Below, one piece after another: positions 184-55,720 of a DNA stretch of 64,000 nucleotides (its first letter is position 1; each line of letters begins with the position of its first letter). This stretch comes from Candidatus Moraniibacteriota bacterium (GTDB lineage: Bacteria; Patescibacteriota; Minisyncoccia; Moranbacterales; UBA9337). The stretch spans positions 62,605-126,604 of the forward strand of contig JALSQF010000003.1 of the NCBI GenBank assembly GCA_026985555.1, read 5' to 3'. The notes below the pieces were generated by a model. That model did not search any database. It saw only the letters and a program-made list of their open reading frames with translations, and was not told the origin of the DNA. Position numbers and translations under genes: made by a program.

Positions 184-212
184 TTGACAAAAAAGAAAAA
201 ATATGCTAGTAT
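184..212 (+). promoter_or_regulatory. sigma70-like promoter TTGACA-N17-TAGTAT
   Basis: TTGACA at 184-189, 17-nt spacer, TAGTAT at 207-212, about 28 nt upstream of the ATG at 241. Confidence 0.55.
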
Positions 213-28292: not shown

Positions 28293-28520
28293 TTAAAATT
28301 GGGAGAAAACGGAAAAAGATCTAAAATCTAAATGAAAAAATAAGTTAAGATTTAATATAAGAAGTAAGCCAAAGACCATAATAAAAATACTAAGCATTAT
28401 TAAACTATGTGTTTTATTGATAGAATATTTAACAATGTGATAAATAATAAACAAACCTGCGACAAGAAAACTTAAGATAATAATTAGATATAAAAGAGAA
28501 AAAATATTTTTTAATAACAT
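28293..28520 (-). CDS. small membrane protein, hypothetical
   Basis: Two predicted transmembrane helices. Confidence 0.3.
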   Translation of the reverse strand: MLLKNIFSLLYLIIILSFLVAGLFIIYHIVKYSINKTHSLIMLSIFIMVFGLLLILNLNLFFHLDFRSFSVFSQF

Positions 28521-28538: not shown

Positions 28539-29549
28539 TTAAATTAATTTTTGTTGTTGCGCTTGAGTAAATTTGTAACCCAAATGGTCATAAGCGTTTT
28601 TTGTAACTACTCTTCCGCGAGGTGTTCTGGCTAAAAATCCTATTTGAATCAAAAAGGGTTCATAAACATCTTCAATGGTTCGTATTTCTTCTGCTGTAGC
28701 GGCGGCTAATGTTTGAATTCCAACAGGACCACCTTGAAATTTTTCAATGATAGTTTTAATAATTTCTCTGTCAGTGGGTTCTAGACCAAAATTATCAATT
28801 TCTAAAGTGTTTAATGCTTCTTGAGATATTGATTCATCAATTATTGGTTTGTTTTTAATTTGAGCGAGATCGCGAACTCTTTTTAATAAACGGTTAGCAA
28901 TACGAGGAGTTTGTCGGCTACATTGGGCAATAATTTTTGATCCTTTTTCATCTATTTCAATGTTTAAAATTTTACTAGAACGTTGAATAATTTTTTGAAT
29001 TTCTTCAGTAGTATAAAATTCCAAGCGATTAATAACTCCAAATCTATTGCGAAGGGGATTAGAAATAGATCCTAAACGTGTCGTAGCACCGATAAGGGTA
29101 AATTTTGGCAAATCCAGTTGAAGTGTTCTAGCAGAAGGTCCTTTGCCTACGATTATGTCTAATTTATAATCTTCCATAGCAGGGTAGAGAATTTCTTCTA
29201 CTAATTTATTAAGGCGATGAATTTCATCAATAAATAAAACATCTCCATCTTGTAAATTGGTTAAGATAGATCCTAAATCTCCTACTTTTTCAATAGCTGG
29301 ACCAGAAGTTATTTTAATATTAACATTCATTTCTTTAGCTATGATATGAGAAAGAGTTGTTTTTCCTAGTCCAGCTGGTCCATAAAGAAGAACATGTTCA
29401 ATAGCTTCTTTTCTTTTTTTGGCGGCTTCTATTAGAATTTTAAGATTTTTTTTAGTTTTTTCTTGTCCAACGTATTCCTGAAAATTTTGAGGACGAAGGG
29501 TTTGATCTAATTGAATATCTTCTGATTGTTCTTGAGAATTGGTAATCAT
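28539..29549 (-). CDS. ruvB: Holliday junction ATP-dependent DNA helicase RuvB
   Basis: [13 protein letters not shown] Walker A, sensor motifs. Start placed at MITNSQ. The ORF track extends to 29651. Confidence 0.85.
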
Positions 29550-29728
29550 AAAAGTAAATAGTTTAATTTTAAAATAATAAAATGATACAGATAAACTTAT
29601 TTTATTATAATTTATATTTAAAATTATATCAGCACTTGACAAAAAAATCAAAGCATGCTAGTCTTGAAAGTCATCAGTAATTTAAGATAAAAAAATAAAT
29701 AGTAAGTAAGAATTAAATTCTTTTTAAT

Positions 29729-29874
29729 ATCTTGCAGACAATTGGGAGTTGCTATCTTTTGCTCTCAATCAGGGAACTTTATTAGCCCAGACATGGGCGT
29801 TTTGGTCAAGGCTGAAACGTTCCTCGGCACTGTTCTCTCCCCGAGGTTCCTATATTTCGGGTTGTCTGCAAGAT
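29729..29874. ncRNA. candidate structured RNA of unknown family, GC-rich and closed by a 13-bp long-range helix
   Basis: atcttgcagacaa (29729-29741) pairs with ttgtctgcaagat (29862-29874). At least four internal hairpins (attgggag/ctctcaat, gccca-gaca-tgggc, cgtttt/gaaacg, cctcgg/ccgagg). About 50% GC against about 28% in the flanks. Confidence 0.4.
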
Positions 29875-29924
29875 AATGAAAAGAATTTTTTTTATAAAAA
29901 AATAAAAATAATTTTTACAAATAA

Positions 29925-31400
29925 GTGCAAAAAATTAATAAGTCAAAAATATTTTTTTTAAGTAGTTTCAGTTTTTTAGTGGGAATTTTAGAAGAATCTT
30001 TTTTTCCTTTTTCTAAAATTATTCACTTGGAAATAATCGTAAGTATTCTTTTTCTTTGGTTAATAATATACCTTTTTGCTAATAAAAAAGCTAAAATTTC
30101 TATTGTTTTAATATTTTTTCTATTTTTAGGAGTTTTTAGAGTGCAATTAGCTTTAAAAGAAATAAATCAAGGTTATTCTTTTAATCAATTTTCTCAAAAA
30201 GGAATAATAGTTAATGATCCTATTATTAAAAATAATTATCAAAATTTAATAGTTTTAACTCAAGCTAAAGATCAAAAAAATAAAAATCAAAAAATAAAAA
30301 TATTAATAAAAACTAGTAAATATCCTCATTTCCAATATGGGGATAAAATAAATTATTTCTGTCAACCTAGAATTCCTCAAAATTTTTCTTCAGACTTTGA
30401 TTATAAAATGTTTTTAGCTAAAGATAAAATTTATTATGTTTGTTTAGATAATCACATTAAAATTATTCAGTCTAATCAAGGAAATTTTGTCTATAGTTTT
30501 TTATTAAAAACAAAAAAGAAACTAGAAAAAAATATAAATGAAAAACTTCCTCAACCCGAAGCAGCTTTAGCCAGTGGATTACTTTTAGGAGGAAGCCATA
30601 GAATGAGTTTGTCGTTACAGAAGCAGTTTTCTCAAACGGGTATGAGCCATATCGTTGCCGTTTCCGGATTTAATGTTACCATAATAGCTAATTATTTAAT
30701 ATTATTAGGAATTTTTTTGGGATTTAACAGAAAAAATGCTTTTTGGTTAGCTTTATTAGGAATTTTTTCTTTTATTGTTTTAATTGGTTGGCCAGCTTCA
30801 GCAGTGAGAGCGGGAATAATGAGTTCTTTTTTACTCTGGGCTATAAAAAAAGGAAGATTGGGAAATGCAATTAATGTTATTCTACTTGCTGTCGTAGGCA
30901 TGCTATTATTCAATCCACTTCTTTTGCGTTGGGATGTAGGTTTTCAGCTTTCTTTTCTAGCCACTTTAGGATTGATTTTATGGGCACCTCTAGGAGAAAA
31001 ATATTTTCTTCAAAAACATAAAACATTTGGTTTTGGAGAAATATTTTTTCTTACTTTAGTTGCTCAAATCTTTGTTTTGCCTATTATTTTTTCTAGCTTT
31101 CATAATTTTTCACCTCTTTCTTTGCTGGCTAATTTATTAATTCTTAGCGTGCTTCCCTTGACAGTTGGTTTAGTTTTTCTTTTGTCTATAAGTGTGATAT
31201 TTTTTCCATTTCTAACTTTATTCTTTGAATGGTTAAGTTATCTATTGCTTCATTATATAATAATTGTAATTAAAACTTTATCTAGCTGGGGCGTAGTCTA
31301 TAAAATAAATAATTTTTCATGGTATTTTTTTCTATTATGGTATATAATTTTATTTGTTTTTTATTTTTTATTAACTAAAAATAAGATTAAAGATAGATAG
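29925..31400 (+). CDS. comEC: ComEC/Rec2 DNA internalisation channel, membrane domain
   Basis: Polytopic; the SHIVAVSGFNV competence motif. Confidence 0.7.
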   Translation: MQKINKSKIFFLSSFSFLVGILEESFFPFSKIIHLEIIVSILFLWLIIYLFANKKAKISIVLIFFLFLGVFRVQLALKEINQGYSFNQFSQKGIIVNDPIIKNNYQNLIVLTQAKDQKNKNQKIKILIKTSKYPHFQYGDKINYFCQPRIPQNFSSDFDYKMFLAKDKIYYVCLDNHIKIIQSNQGNFVYSFLLKTKKKLEKNINEKLPQPEAALASGLLLGGSHRMSLSLQKQFSQTGMSHIVAVSGFNVTIIANYLILLGIFLGFNRKNAFWLALLGIFSFIVLIGWPASAVRAGIMSSFLLWAIKKGRLGNAINVILLAVVGMLLFNPLLLRWDVGFQLSFLATLGLILWAPLGEKYFLQKHKTFGFGEIFFLTLVAQIFVLPIIFSSFHNFSPLSLLANLLILSVLPLTVGLVFLLSISVIFFPFLTLFFEWLSYLLLHYIIIVIKTLSSWGVVYKINNFSWYFFLLWYIILFVFYFLLTKNKIKDR

Positions 31401-36660: not shown

Positions 36661-39600
36661 TTAAAAACTAGTTACTCGCCTTACTTCTTCAAAAGTAGTT
36701 TTTCCTTGAATAATTTTTATAATTCCATCTTCATACATAGTTATCATACCATTTTGTACGGCTTTTTGTTTTATATCAGTAGCTAAAGCTCTTTGAGCAA
36801 TAAGATGGCGAATACTATCATCTACAACCAAAACTTCACTGATAGGCGCGCGTCCTTTGTAGCCGAGATGATTACATTTTTCACATCCGTTAGGTTCGTA
36901 AATATATTCTGGAAGAGTAATTTCTAAATCTTTTATTTTAGAAGAAACAGACTTAATAATTTTTTTAAATTCTTCTTTTTCTTCTGGTTTGATTTTTCTT
37001 CGTTTTTTACAGCTACATAATTTTCTTACAAGGCGTTGAGACATAAAAGCATTAGCAGAGTTGGCTAAATTATCAGCATCTACACCTAAACCTATTAGGC
37101 GGGGTGCTACTCCAGAGGCGTCGTTAGTACGCAAAGTTGATAAGAGTAAATGACCACTTATAGAAGCTTGCACTGTGATTTTAGCGGTTTCATCATCACG
37201 AATTTCTCCAACCATTAGAATATCGGGATTTTGCCTAAGAAGAGAACGTAGCGCTGTAGCAAAAGTATAATTCTTTTCTTTATTTACTTGAGTCTGTAAT
37301 ATTCCCTTCAGTTGATATTCAATGGGATCTTCTACTGTGATGATTTTTAATTCTGGCTGACTAAGTCCACTTAGAATGCTGTAAAGAGTAGTAGTTTTTC
37401 CTGAACCAGTGGGTCCAGCGTTAAGGAATAGGCCATTAGGTTTGCTTGTTTCTTGAATAATCCTCTTTAAATTATAAGGGAGAATTTCTAATTGTTCTAT
37501 ATCTTTAGCAATAGCCGAATGGTTTGAAAATTTCATTATAACTGTTTCACCATATCCTCCTGCTATAAATGATATTCTAATGTTTACTTTAGTTTCTTGA
37601 ATAATAGAATTATTTTCTATATAGAGAGTAAAACGGCTATCTTTTAAGCCAACTTGTTTTTCCGATTTGAGTCCGCTTAATAATTTTAATTTACCTAGTA
37701 AGAAAGGGTATTCATCAAGTGGAATTCTAGCCATATTTTGAATAACTCCATCAATACGATAACGTATAACTACATCTTTTTCTTCAGGCTCAATATGAAT
37801 ATCTTCTGCTTCCCAAAGAAGAGCGCCAGTTAAAATGTATTCAGTTAATTTTTTAAAAGGAGTTTTTTTAATTAAAGATTGAAACTTTTGAGGAGAATGA
37901 GAGTATTCTTTAATTTTGTCAATATTTTTTTTCTCTATGTTTATTCCTCTAGATAAGGATTGTTCCATTAATTTATTATAGAGATTTTTTAAGAATTTAG
38001 TTTCACCGGCTACTCTTTGGACTTCTTCTAATGAAGTGATTCCTTCTATGGCTTTGATAATTCCATCTTGAGCCATAGTAACCATACCCTCTTCAATAGC
38101 TGTTTGAGTAATAGTATCTTCACTTTCCATTTTTAAAATAAGTTGTTTAATATTTTCACTAACTGGCAACACTTCAAAAATACCTATACGTCCTTTATAA
38201 CCAGTGTAGTTGCAATGAGAACAACCCCGAGAACGATAAAGAAAATCTATGTTTTTAGGTATGGTAATATTTGAGCGAGGAGAAATAACAGAAAGTAGTT
38301 CTTTTAATAAATTAGCAACTTTGTCAGCAGGTTTGTATTTTTCTTTGCAATAAGGACATAGTTTACGAACAAGTCGTTGTGCCATAAAAATATTGGCTGA
38401 AGCAGCGATTAAATTAGGACGCGCTCCTAATTCTATAAAACGAGGAATAGTTCCTGCCGCATTATTAGTATGAAGAGTAGATAATACTAAATGTCCAGTT
38501 AAAGCAGCATTAATAGCAATATCAGCAGTTTCATCATCTCTAATTTCTCCTACAAGAATAATGTCAGGATCTTGTCTGACAATGGCTCGTAATCCTTCTG
38601 CAAAAGAATAATGGCGATCTGGAGCTACCTGGGTTTGAGAAATATTTTCAATTTGATACTCAATTGGATTTTCTATGGTAACAATTTTTACTCCGGGTTT
38701 ATTAAGCAAATTAATAAAAGAATAAAGAGTAGTAGTTTTTCCTGAACCAGTGGGTCCAGTAGTGAGAATCATTCCATTTGGTCTAGCAATTTCTTTTTTT
38801 ACTAATTCATAAGCTTTTCCTCTTAATCCTAACTTTTCTATAGTTAATAAAACCTTTCTTTGATCTAATAAACGCATTACAATAGTTTCTCCATAATTTC
38901 CAGGAAGAACACTAGATCTTATATCTATTCTTTCTTTATTTACTTTTATAGTGAAATGTCCATCTTGAGCAATATCATGAAGATTTATTTTCATTTTACT
39001 CATCATTTTTAAACGAAAGATTATCTGATGGTGAATTTTTTTTGGAAAAAAACCTATATCTTGTAAAACTCCATCAAGTCTATAACGTAAACGTATTTGA
39101 TCATCCTGTGGTTCTAGATGGATATCGCTAGCTCCCATTTTTAAAGCTCCAGCTATAATAGTGTTAATGATTTCTGTTGTGGGTAATTCTAATATCCTTT
39201 CTTTTAAATTGATAAGATTCTTAAATTTTTCTTCAAATTTATCTAAATCTTTTGTAGTTAGGTTGGCCTGAGTAAGATCTAAAAAAGTTAAGTATTTTTT
39301 TTCATTATATTTTTTCCAAGCTTTTTCTAAAGAAGAAAAAGAAACTATATAAGGAGATATTTGCCAACCTTTTTCTTTTTTAAGATAATCAAGATATTTT
39401 TTAAAACCAGGAAGAGCAGGATTAAATATAGCTAAACGAATACGTTTATTAGTTTTTTGAAAAGAAGCTATTTTAAATTTTCGGGCATCTTTTTCTGGAA
39501 TAATTTGAACTGTTTCAGGATCAATGGCAAAAAGGGAAAGATCTATATAAGGTAAGTGATTTTCTTTAGCTAAACGGAAGGCTAATTCTTCTTCAGAAAG

Positions 39601-39690
39601 ATGTTGTAATTTTTTAAAGGTTCTTTTTAAACGTTCTTCTTTTCTTTTTTTCCAGGGAGATAGAAATTTTTTCTTTATTATTTTGACCAT
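36661..39690 (-). CDS. tandem-fused double PilB/GspE-type type IV pilus / type II secretion ATPase
   Basis: Two complete N2 + ATPase + zinc-finger units. Walker A GPTGSGKTTTLYS occurs twice. The (D/E)IH(L/I)EP...RYR(L/I)DG block occurs twice. Cys4 clusters occur twice. Confidence 0.8.
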   Translation of the reverse strand: MVKIIKKKFLSPWKKRKEERLKRTFKKLQHLSEEELAFRLAKENHLPYIDLSLFAIDPETVQIIPEKDARKFKIASFQKTNKRIRLAIFNPALPGFKKYLDYLKKEKGWQISPYIVSFSSLEKAWKKYNEKKYLTFLDLTQANLTTKDLDKFEEKFKNLINLKERILELPTTEIINTIIAGALKMGASDIHLEPQDDQIRLRYRLDGVLQDIGFFPKKIHHQIIFRLKMMSKMKINLHDIAQDGHFTIKVNKERIDIRSSVLPGNYGETIVMRLLDQRKVLLTIEKLGLRGKAYELVKKEIARPNGMILTTGPTGSGKTTTLYSFINLLNKPGVKIVTIENPIEYQIENISQTQVAPDRHYSFAEGLRAIVRQDPDIILVGEIRDDETADIAINAALTGHLVLSTLHTNNAAGTIPRFIELGARPNLIAASANIFMAQRLVRKLCPYCKEKYKPADKVANLLKELLSVISPRSNITIPKNIDFLYRSRGCSHCNYTGYKGRIGIFEVLPVSENIKQLILKMESEDTITQTAIEEGMVTMAQDGIIKAIEGITSLEEVQRVAGETKFLKNLYNKLMEQSLSRGINIEKKNIDKIKEYSHSPQKFQSLIKKTPFKKLTEYILTGALLWEAEDIHIEPEEKDVVIRYRIDGVIQNMARIPLDEYPFLLGKLKLLSGLKSEKQVGLKDSRFTLYIENNSIIQETKVNIRISFIAGGYGETVIMKFSNHSAIAKDIEQLEILPYNLKRIIQETSKPNGLFLNAGPTGSGKTTTLYSILSGLSQPELKIITVEDPIEYQLKGILQTQVNKEKNYTFATALRSLLRQNPDILMVGEIRDDETAKITVQASISGHLLLSTLRTNDASGVAPRLIGLGVDADNLANSANAFMSQRLVRKLCSCKKRRKIKPEEKEEFKKIIKSVSSKIKDLEITLPEYIYEPNGCEKCNHLGYKGRAPISEVLVVDDSIRHLIAQRALATDIKQKAVQNGMITMYEDGIIKIIQGKTTFEEVRRVTSF

Positions 39691-49547: not shown

Positions 49548-49986
49548 GATGAGGCTTGCAAAAATAATTATTTTTTTAATTTAACTAATTGAAAAAACAA
49601 TCTATATCAAAAAATAATAAGCAAAAATATAAACGGTATTTCAATCTAATTTCATTTAAATCTATTTAATAGAAATAAAAAATGAAATAGAAATTAGTTG
49701 AATTCCGTTATGGCGGAGTTTTTTATTTGAAAATTAATTAAAAAGTTTGTGAAGAAATTGATATTTTAGATTATTAAAATATAAACTGAACTTAAAATCT
49801 AAAGTATTAATTTCCGCATAAATGAGTAAATTAAAAACAAAATAGAAAAGATGGTTTTATAGAAAGGAAATTATTTTTAAGCGGAAAAATAGTTTCTGAA
49901 ATAAAACCAAAATAAAGTAGGTAAGTAATTTTATTGAGTCAAAAATTAGTTAAGTTATTTTTAACTACTAATTTTGAAAGTAAAAA

Positions 49987-53056
<3,070 letters not shown>

Positions 53057-53181
53057 TTACTTTCATTTCATTGTAGCAATTACGCTAGCGTTTGTTACAA
53101 TGATTAGTAGTTAAAAGTAACTTAATGTAGTTATTTTAAATAATTTTGCAGATACCAACTGAAACTAGATGATATTATTTT

Positions 53182-53294
53182 GGTGGTTTTAGCGAGAGGG
53201 GTACACCTGTTCCCATACCGAACACAGTAGTTAAGCCTCTTAGCGCCGATGATATTGAGACTTAAAAGTCTTGAGAAAGTAGGTCGCCGCCAAA
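53182..53294 (+). rRNA. rrf: 5S ribosomal RNA
   Basis: CCTGTTCCCATACCGAACACAG...GCGCCGATG...GTAGG are conserved. Confidence 0.85.
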
Positions 53295-53317
53295 ATAATG
53301 TCATCTAGTTTTTTTAT

Positions 53318-53351
53318 TAAAAAATCAATATTTGTAAATATTGATTTTTTA
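53318..53351 (+). terminator. AT-rich palindromic hairpin plus T-run after 5S
   Basis: aaaaaatcaatattt-gt-aaatattgatttttt. Confidence 0.45.
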
Positions 53352-53413
53352 ATAAATTTTAGTTATGCTATTAAAGTGTTGAAATAATAATAGTATAAAT
53401 TACTAGGAAAAAA

Positions 53414-53500
53414 GGAGAGGTGCCTGAGTGGTTGAAAGGGGCACCCTGCTAAGGTGTTGTACCTTCACAGGTACCGAGGGTTCGAATCCCTCCCTCTCCG
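53414..53500 (+). tRNA. tRNA-Ser (anticodon GCT), class II with long variable arm
   Basis: Acceptor GGAGAGG/CCTCTCC, anticodon loop CTGCTAA, long variable arm, T-loop TTCGAAT. Confidence 0.9.
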
Positions 53501-53593
53501 CAAATTTGCAATTTTTGCATTTTTGGCTGAATTTGGAGCGGAGCAAAGCTCCTCTGAGGCCGCGCTTTGCGCGAAAAGGGCTGAATTTACAAG

Positions 53594-55691: not shown

Positions 55692-55720
55692 TTGACAAAG
55701 CAGAAAAAATATATTAAAAT
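55692..55720 (+). promoter_or_regulatory. consensus sigma70 promoter TTGACA-N17-TAAAAT
   Basis: Read directly. Confidence 0.5.

Follow-up and report, generated by a model that had tools for sequence, protein, structure and literature searches.

The window analyzed here is a 64,000-nucleotide stretch of DNA from a Candidatus Moraniibacteriota bacterium. Between a gene for RuvB on its minus strand and a gene for a ComEC-type protein on its plus strand lies a compact element whose letters at positions 29729-29874 are as the initial annotation gave them. The GC island described there is also present: GC content is 0.50 at positions 29750-29849 against 0.13-0.25 in the flanks and 0.30 in the whole window. 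As had been claimed, a perfect helix closes the element, but it is 14 bp long (29728-29741 / 29862-29875) and not 13 bp; it encloses a GC-rich core of 120 nt. Outward the inverted repeat widens to 27-nt arms (29715-29741 / 29862-29888) with 93% complementarity and two mismatches. Of perfect inverted repeats with 13 or more bp, 5 or more G/C and a loop of 20-200 nt, the window holds eight, this element among them; Markov-1 random sequences matched to it in composition would be expected to yield 0.075 per window. The plus strand folds at -58.9 kcal/mol (z = -5.32), a value that none of 200 shuffles equaled, and the minus strand folds much less well (z = -3.09). The element occurs once in the 64 kb, and is found in identical form on four other contigs of the same species. 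The features of the locus, in order along the window, are:

28539-29549, minus strand: RuvB gene, flanking the element
29623-29631, minus strand: extended -10 of the divergent ruvB promoter (TGaTATAAT), from a promoter scan, 4 bp from the -35 of the RNA; it belongs to the surroundings of the RNA and not to the RNA itself
29636-29641, plus strand: -35 hexamer TTGACA of the RNA's own predicted promoter, which matches TTGACA-N14-TGnTAnnnT exactly
29656-29664, plus strand: extended -10 of the same promoter (TG at 29656-29657, TAGTCT at 29659-29664)
29670-29714, plus strand: predicted 5' leader, variable in sequence and length between genomes
29715-29727, plus strand: 5' arm of the outer extension of the closing helix, pairing with 29876-29888, from the inverted repeat
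29728-29741, plus strand: 5' strand of closing helix P1, pairing with 29862-29875, from covariation
29742-29768, plus strand: hairpin P2, with an 8-bp stem (29742-29749 / 29761-29768) and an 11-nt loop (29750-29760)
29771-29838, plus strand: long arm P3-P3a-P4, with covariation in P3, P3a and P4
29771-29777 / 29832-29838, plus strand: P3, from covariation
29778-29784, plus strand: variable joiner between P3 and P3a, the site of insertions
29785-29787 / 29826-29828, plus strand: P3a, from covariation
29788-29794 (CAGAYNN) and 29824-29825 (UC), plus strand: conserved asymmetric internal loop
29795-29806 / 29811-29823, plus strand: P4, capped by a tetraloop at 29807-29810
29840-29861, plus strand: hairpin P5, with an 8-bp stem (29840-29847 / 29854-29861) and a 6-nt loop (29848-29853)
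29862-29875 and 29876-29888, plus strand: 3' strand of P1 and of the outer extension, from the inverted repeat and covariation
29886-29893, plus strand: run of eight U right after the closing helix, read from the sequence as the likely 3' end (terminator tail)
29925-31400, plus strand: ComEC-type protein gene, flanking the element

A scan based on RuvB, taking one genome per species, yielded 80 loci, the closest of which are from Candidatus Moranbacteria and from other Parcubacteria/Patescibacteria. In about 50 of these, Moranbacteria loci, blastn and nhmmer searches with the 174-nt element gave a match, each lying on the strand opposite ruvB and 150-500 nt upstream of it, with 62-84% identity over the aligned part (mostly 65-75%). 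From 34 of the homologous sequences a covariance model was built; it scores 35-147 bits in the window and at 56 genome loci of Patescibacteria, and it has no match in 24 RuvB loci, of which 23 belong to other phyla and one (L085) to Microgenomates. Metagenome contigs were scanned with a pattern taken from the RNA only (P1 plus the P2 loop), making no use of ruvB. This gave at least 119 stretches; 80 were retrieved and 76 of these carry the RNA, nearly all at full length. In total there are more than 130 sequences (56 genome and 76 metagenome loci) from Moranbacteria and related Patescibacteria. The RNA is present in every Moranbacteria-type genome examined, in one copy per locus and always beside ruvB. 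Viral contigs, scanned with two patterns, contained no match.

Is the fold itself conserved? A MAFFT alignment of 34 sequences made blind to structure (alignment A2) was scored against a structure that combined the fold of the window with inspection. Standard pairs form in 91.0% of the aligned cells, and sliding the 3' partner by 1-3 columns lowers this to 44-49%. Double changes occur in 30 of the 49 pairs (190 cells, against at most 65 in the slid controls); none of 500 shuffles reached any observed measure. The metagenome set took no part in model building, yet its alignment was fitted to the model; there 93.7% of cells pair against 41-47% in slid controls, with double changes in 32 of 49 pairs (372 cells). 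RNAalifold, run independently, recovers P1, P2, P4 and P5. The initial annotation had proposed looking for covariation in homologous regions, and both covariation and conservation are clearly present. Three G-U pairs are near-invariant to invariant (29-34 of the 34 sequences). One G-U pair of the P2 stem is kept in every one of the 34 rows of A2 and, in alignment A4, in 62 of the 63 rows with letters at that place. Since the complementary strand would have A-C in these places, the RNA is read from the plus strand of the window, opposite ruvB. No reading frame is conserved: of 105 sequences the best frame is open in 49, and core lengths modulo 3 are spread evenly over the three residues. A small protein gene was rejected on these two grounds.

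The core of about 146 nt folds as a tight four-way junction of P1, P2, the P3-P3a-P4 arm and P5. P1 continues into P2 with zero unpaired bases between them, and three of the four joints have 1-4 unpaired bases. The annotation had counted four or more hairpins, one with a 13-nt loop; the closing helix of the conserved fold holds three arms, and the loop in question is the 11-nt loop of P2. A GCCCA-GACA-TGGGC tetraloop hairpin, likewise proposed, is without double changes, and 35-44% of homologues break two of its five pairs. This hairpin competes with P3a and P4, which covariation supports.

The helices differ in what they conserve. In P1 the top 10 bp keep their sequence (CUGUAGACAA / UUGUCUACAG) in most genomes; double changes occur in 7-8 of its 14 pairs, and 90-92% of cells pair. 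The P2 stem has 4-6 covarying pairs, with paired cells at 100% in A2 and 98.8% in A4, and its loop, CUAUCUUUU, is invariant across the 34-sequence alignment and is the sole conserved single-stranded stretch longer than 7 nt. Also invariant in this seed alignment are C-AGA...GG / CCUCG around the P3a-P4 internal loop, G-G / C at the top of P4, and a large part of the 10 inner base pairs of P1; the few most distant members (L053, L056, L059, L060 and L075) deviate at some of the invariant positions. P5, poorly conserved in sequence, has double changes in 7 of its 8 pairs, and its cells are 77-94% paired (94% in the independent metagenome set). Free variation is seen in P5, in the middle of P4 and in the P4 cap (UUCG, GCAA, CAAG or UCCG). 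Extra hairpins of up to about 100 nt occur only at the joiner between P3 and P3a (L013, L018, L044 and L045); a single site that tolerates insertions is what would be expected of a folded RNA with defined functional surfaces. Two motif readings were tried and rejected. A K-turn in the internal loop would need an invariant A at a position that covaries within P3a (U-A to C-G). In a reading as promoter mimicry, UAGACA is followed 12 nt on by UAUCUU, a spacing that is too short, and the motif is absent in UUGCAGGC variants.

Upstream of the core, TTGACA (with at most one mismatch), a 17-nt spacer and TGnTAnnnT are found in 105 of 106 unique homologous regions. The distance from the end of the -10 to the core has a median of 51 nt (range 22-150), and RGUC(A/G)YY is conserved just after the -10 in homologues. 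Spacing predicts a transcription start near 29669-29672 in the window. The predicted promoter is near-consensus and sigma-70-type; similar promoters stand at other places in the window, which makes it the organism's strong general promoter type. At the other end a U-tract lies directly behind the helix in about a dozen homologues (L006, L007, L013, L018, L030, L046, L049, L051-L053, L055 and L075), and in most of the rest a canonical terminator hairpin stands apart, 10-30 nt beyond. From these signals we infer that the RNA is its own transcription unit, with expression, ends, abundance and processing all predicted from sequence. The initial annotation's readings of the element as a structured non-coding RNA or a stand-alone small RNA are thus supported by conservation, covariation, a promoter of its own and a terminator, and the element is best described as a putative gene for a stand-alone structured RNA.

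Outside the modeled part of P1 the sequence is wholly different between genomes, and still the two flanks are complementary. Flanks of the same genome pair at -8.9 kcal/mol against -6.2 kcal/mol for flanks taken from other genomes (p = 4e-13), and the ungapped extension beyond P1 has a median of 9 bp, for a total of about 23 bp and up to about 32 bp. Such a long terminal helix would protect the ends of the RNA. Processing stems are well known from stable RNAs that RNase III cuts, namely the 16S and 23S rRNA precursors and the scRNA precursor of Bacillus subtilis. The 14 bp of P1 with the median 9 bp beyond it, and a leader of median length about 44 nt, fit the layout of RNase III precursors, in which the flanking helix spans about two turns, at least 22 bp. 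As in those precursors, the core is flanked by a long helix (about 23 bp) of variable sequence inside a primary transcript with leader and trailer; unlike in them, what the helix encloses is not an rRNA or an SRP RNA, and cleavage here is conjectural. RNase III may trim the terminal helix and so free the mature RNA from its leader. Trimming is superfluous where a U-tract directly follows the helix, as it does in some lineages, and there, in a further difference from the precursors, the helix may simply be the terminator stem. The order of leader, helix-flanked core and terminator is that of trimmed stable RNAs, and suggests that this RNA could be trimmed too.

A search of the whole window against Rfam 15 at the gathering threshold returned rRNA and tRNA only. 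The initial annotation had failed to match the element to known families, and this holds: with E up to 10 it has no meaningful match in Rfam 15. The consensus-like homologue L039, searched at the same limit, had chance matches only (eukaryotic snoRNAs and similar), and no riboswitch aptamer class of Rfam 15 matched either sequence. ARAGORN called no tRNA-like or tmRNA gene at the element. A gathering-threshold scan of 143 kb of Moranbacteria loci returned nothing at all, and is thus uninformative on canonical 6S, SRP and RNase P RNAs. In the literature on non-coding RNAs of Patescibacteria, Moranbacteria and Parcubacteria and on RNA motifs linked to ruvB, no description of this RNA was found. 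Inspection of the alignments revealed no conserved alternative pairing; what follows the core is a U-tract behind the closing helix or a separate, constitutive-looking terminator. The RNA looks like a new family of a familiar kind, the stand-alone, highly structured bacterial RNA.

By general kind, the nearest analogue is the raiA motif RNA (RF03072; ModT of Clostridioides difficile), which is no relative by any test made. That RNA is encoded at a single locus, is independently transcribed and acts in trans, with a function that is unknown (PMC12968392). It forms a four-way junction in which P1c stacks on P2 and one arm is bent by an asymmetric loop; its 5' and 3' ends pair as closing helix P1, whose inner part keeps its sequence, and its peripheral stems are variable or optional (PMC12968392). 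A conserved single strand of about 10 nt has been proposed as a KhpA/KhpB site, and the features of the family include the pseudoknots PK1 and PK2, the linker UUAGA(C/A)GUAA, and GU and GGU bulges in P1 (PMC12968392). Our RNA shares with it the single locus, the predicted transcription of its own and the proposed action in trans, the four-way junction, P1 adjoining P2, an arm with an asymmetric loop, a conserved closing P1 formed by the two ends, variable peripheral parts, and one conserved single strand. It differs in having no match to the Rfam model; its P4 is capped by a variable tetraloop, so that there is no PK1, and PK2 has no counterpart. Its P1 lacks the GU and GGU bulges; UAGAC is present but lies inside the P1 helix, and the conserved single strand is a hairpin loop of different sequence. 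The hosts and contexts are also distinct: raiA RNA belongs to Bacillota and Actinomycetota and lies in a comFC-raiA context, whereas the present RNA belongs to Patescibacteria and lies beside ruvB.

The sole constant neighbor of the RNA is ruvB. It is divergent in all genome loci and also in all 67 metagenome loci that include it, at a distance of 78-765 nt; the other 9 RNA-bearing metagenome contigs, out of 76, reach less than 250 nt beyond the RNA on its upstream side. The extended -10 of ruvB stands exactly 4 bp from the -35 of the RNA in 64 of 106 homologous regions; with this spacing the weak ruvB -35 has to fall within the spacer of the RNA promoter. Since the two promoters are interleaved, no breakpoint between them could spare both, and the order of RNA and ruvB is frozen. 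Strict linkage to ruvB is best explained in this way, and the explanation is sufficient. The interleaving is unusually rigid, and offers a clean case in which to study the freezing of gene order by shared regulatory DNA. The overlap also suggests that the RNA and ruvB promoters interfere with each other, and competition between them might have a role in ruvB expression.

The explanation that we favor, and which we hold to be about evenly balanced between right and wrong, is that the element encodes, as a gene of its own, a structured small RNA, which we call the Moranbacteria ruvB-divergent RNA; this RNA would be stable, act in trans and probably bind protein, and its linkage to ruvB would come from the interleaved promoters. 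As far as sequence can tell, it is a folded RNA under strong selection that is not placed to control a downstream gene. The junction, the 11-nt loop, the internal loop and the variable periphery, with its one site open to insertions, argue for a specific recognition surface rather than for simple base-pairing. In the proposed mechanism the RNA acts in trans as a stable folded molecule, and the P2 loop and the internal loop (C-AGA..GG / CC-UC-G) would form one recognition surface on neighboring arms. P2 is 8 bp high, and the internal loop lies beyond P3 (5-7 bp), the unpaired joiner and P3a (3 bp), so that the two loops would stand side by side if the joiner adds little height. They are possibly joined through UCU:AGA pairs, a modeled contact that rests on invariant bases and so is beyond the reach of covariation. 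The surface most likely binds a protein; a candidate partner, by analogy with raiA RNA, is a single-strand-binding RNA chaperone of the KhpA/KhpB type. Protein binding is probable from the pattern of conservation and from this analogy. The fixed position, the strong promoter and the many invariant bases, in a streamlined genome, point to an important function. The candidate phyla radiation makes up a large share of bacterial diversity and has tiny genomes, and to our knowledge almost nothing is known of its non-coding RNA biology. A covariation-supported family of this size with a defined fold is ready for deposit in Rfam, for probing and for tests of partners.

Other explanations fit parts of this evidence. 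One that we consider rather doubtful is a base-pairing small RNA in which the P2 loop is the seed for AAAAGAUAG-like mRNA sites and the remaining fold is a scaffold that shields and presents it. The loop, as the only conserved single strand of its length, would be the natural seed, and pyrimidine-rich loops are typical seeds in small RNAs of Gram-positive bacteria. There is also an analogy, though only that, with the cia-dependent csRNAs of streptococci, which cluster near ruvB and influence competence (PMC4211561). Both are encoded by small RNA genes near ruvB and have pyrimidine-rich unpaired segments; csRNAs, however, come in several copies, depend on CiaR, consist of two simple hairpins and are unrelated in sequence, and no link to competence is seen here. 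The exact complement of the loop occurs three times elsewhere in the window against 3.0 expected, each time in coding sequence and never at a start, and none was seen by eye in ruvB leaders. Complementarity to the 23S and 5S rRNA genes of the window is not beyond chance, a result that tells against the seed reading and on which rRNA pairing or mimicry was also rejected. Moreover, we know of few base-pairing small RNAs that retain a multi-helix junction with many invariant positions over so deep a clade. A lineage-specific 6S-like RNA that binds the RNA polymerase holoenzyme, which we judge distinctly unlikely, would account for the size (about 165-200 nt with the clamp), the long closing stem formed from paired ends, the long internal arm opposite it and the strong housekeeping-type promoter; canonical 6S RNA was not seen in the sequence examined, which covers small parts of these genomes. 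Unlike 6S RNA, the element has a base-paired four-way junction at its center and not an open bubble: the would-be bubble is filled by two strongly covarying hairpins, P2 (99-100% of cells paired) and P5 (77-94%), and a bubble flanked by two helices is not something that a hairpin loop can imitate. Nor is there an Rfam match to 6S, even with E up to 10. That the element is a very divergent SRP RNA, RNase P RNA, tmRNA, Y RNA or raiA motif RNA is highly improbable. Known RNAs can be atypical in the candidate phyla radiation, and the architecture recalls raiA; against this, Rfam searches of two members with E up to 10 and the ARAGORN search at the element were negative, and the consensus lacks the SRP domain IV motif, the conserved regions of RNase P RNA, and the pseudoknots and linker of raiA RNA. 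A DNA-level element, whether a miniature transposon with terminal inverted repeats or a cruciform palindrome, we regard as virtually out of the question: the long terminal inverted repeat with AAT on both sides would suit it, but there is a single copy per locus at a fixed position and none in viral contigs, the helices keep G-U pairs, which are mismatches in DNA, and covariation runs throughout the interior. A mobile element or MITE was rejected in the same way, there being one copy at a fixed site beside ruvB and no relative in the clade without the RNA.

The two flanking genes suggest readings of their own. The initial annotation had proposed a riboswitch or cis-regulatory leader of comEC, and in the window about 36 nt separate the end of the element from the start of comEC, which leaves little room for a separate promoter, so that read-through could feed comEC here. 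However, comEC adjoins the RNA only in this species. At six other loci annotated with Pfam the next gene is on the opposite strand and convergent with the RNA; it encodes a double-T2SSE ATPase in three, and TrmB, RadC and an unassigned ORF in the others. The ATPase, a fused, PilB/PilT-like protein of about 1005 aa, is the usual neighbor of the RNA; its gene lies at 36661-39690 in the window, separated from the RNA by a block of about 6.7 kb that holds comEC, ftsK and three more ORFs. This intervening block and the varied convergent neighbors leave no basis for a comEC leader or riboswitch; no riboswitch family matches, and inspection revealed no expression platform built on alternative pairing. 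Synteny has largely refuted this reading, and we take a device that controls comEC to be every bit as improbable as a divergent member of a known family. An RNA tied to RuvB or RuvAB is unlikely, though attractive for the linkage and the four-way shape. It would be either a four-way-junction decoy or cofactor for the Holliday-junction machinery, or a device for ruvB expression working through competition between the divergent promoters. In its favor are the divergent ruvB in every informative metagenome locus, although these were found without using ruvB, and the exact 4-bp promoter spacing. The RNA is itself a four-way junction, and it occupies the place of ruvA: in other phyla ruvA lies upstream of ruvB, with ruvC before ruvA, whereas RNA-bearing loci have no ruvA within 5 kb (in one case it is about 10.7 kb away) and have ruvC 2-5 kb downstream of ruvB. 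Yet RuvA is encoded elsewhere in at least one RNA-bearing genome (L136), and the RuvB of the window has the standard three domains and no extra one. Unpaired bases in three of the four joints, together with A-form arms, also set the RNA apart from a DNA Holliday junction. Promoter competition, for its part, needs no conserved RNA fold, and interleaved promoters suffice to explain the linkage. Strict linkage could reflect a functional tie, which in the explanation that we favor, an independent trans-acting RNA, is secondary. The most specific form of such a tie, in which the RNA junction binds RuvA, RuvB or RuvC as a Holliday-junction decoy and tunes branch migration or resolution, is very unlikely; it has a parallel in 6S RNA, which mimics an open promoter. 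If true, it would mean that such a decoy tunes recombination in DNA-scavenging ultra-small bacteria.

The promoters of the RNA (the structured small RNA gene on the + strand, divergent from ruvB) and of ruvB itself are interleaved, in the window and in homologous regions of the loci compared with it (L006-L165).
Window 29623-29664, both strands: interleaved RNA and ruvB promoters

On the - strand, ruvB has an extended -10 of the form TGnTAnnnT, and in 64 of 106 distinct regions exactly 4 bp separate it from the RNA -35; with so small a gap the promoter footprints must overlap. This overlap may have frozen the gene order and may place the two promoters in competition. On the ruvB side, the -10 ends only 7-8 nt 5' of the ATG in several genomes (e.g. 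L087, L089, L107, L141 and L158), which suggests that the ruvB mRNA is leaderless in such genomes. In another sub-clade (L033-L043, L094, L098, L123) a pyrimidine-rich motif, UUUUUUCCCUUUAUUAAGCC, is conserved in the ruvB 5' UTR.

On the RNA side, the predicted primary transcript is conserved at its 5' end (window 29665-29680 and homologues), which reads RGUC(A/G)YY, for instance AGUCAUC or GGUCGCUU; the remainder of the predicted leader is without conservation. Other promoters of the RNA promoter's form occur in the window, and the form looks like the strong promoter consensus of this organism.
Window 184-212, + strand: TTGACA, A-rich 17-nt spacer with TG, TAnnnT
Window 55692-55720, + strand: promoter of the same form

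What of the other ruv genes? The usual order ruvC-ruvA-ruvB is found in loci outside Patescibacteria (L058, L061-L084). In the RNA-bearing loci (L006-L057, L086-L165) no ruvA is found within 5 kb of ruvB; in one case, L136, it lies at a distance of about 10.7 kb. The ruvC gene of the RNA-bearing loci is downstream of ruvB, 2-5 kb from it. A small ORF just 3' of ruvB is kept in several relatives (L009, L010, L016, L020, L107, L140, L143); against Pfam it gave only very weak matches, all sub-threshold with E above 2.
Window 28293-28520, - strand: 75-aa ORF

Some homologues of the RNA carry an inserted GC-rich domain of 50-100 nt, always in the joiner, the variable stretch between helices P3 and P3a of the long arm. 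In L038 and L046-L052 the joiner holds smaller hairpins with a UUCG cap.
L013 4512-4746: homologue with inserted domain
L018 4671-4906: the same
L044 4433-4677: the same
L045 4654-4855: the same

In three of the six loci checked, the gene convergent with the RNA encodes a fused ATPase that is about 1005 aa long and combines an MshEN domain with two T2SSE domains of the PilB/PilT type. In the window, comEC, ftsK and three further ORFs form a block between this ATPase gene and the RNA, about 6.7 kb in length.
Window 36661-39690, - strand: fused double-T2SSE ATPase
L032 1571-4588: the same
L036 1581-4604: the same

The window also carries rRNA genes. The 23S match measures 3081 nt against a 2925-nt model, about 150 nt extra. 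Since the whole 64-kb window has no 16S gene, the rRNA genes seem to be unlinked.
Window 49981-53501: 23S rRNA, then 5S and tRNA-Ser

Perfect inverted repeats (at least 13 bp, at least 5 G/C) number eight in the window against 0.075 expected. Those with short loops are probably terminators. Among the further repeats are:
Window 14286/14323
Window 41166/41205
Window 49395/49434
Window 53945/53999
Window 54431/54622
Window 54710/54804

The three at 53.9-54.8 kb are within or close to ORFs.
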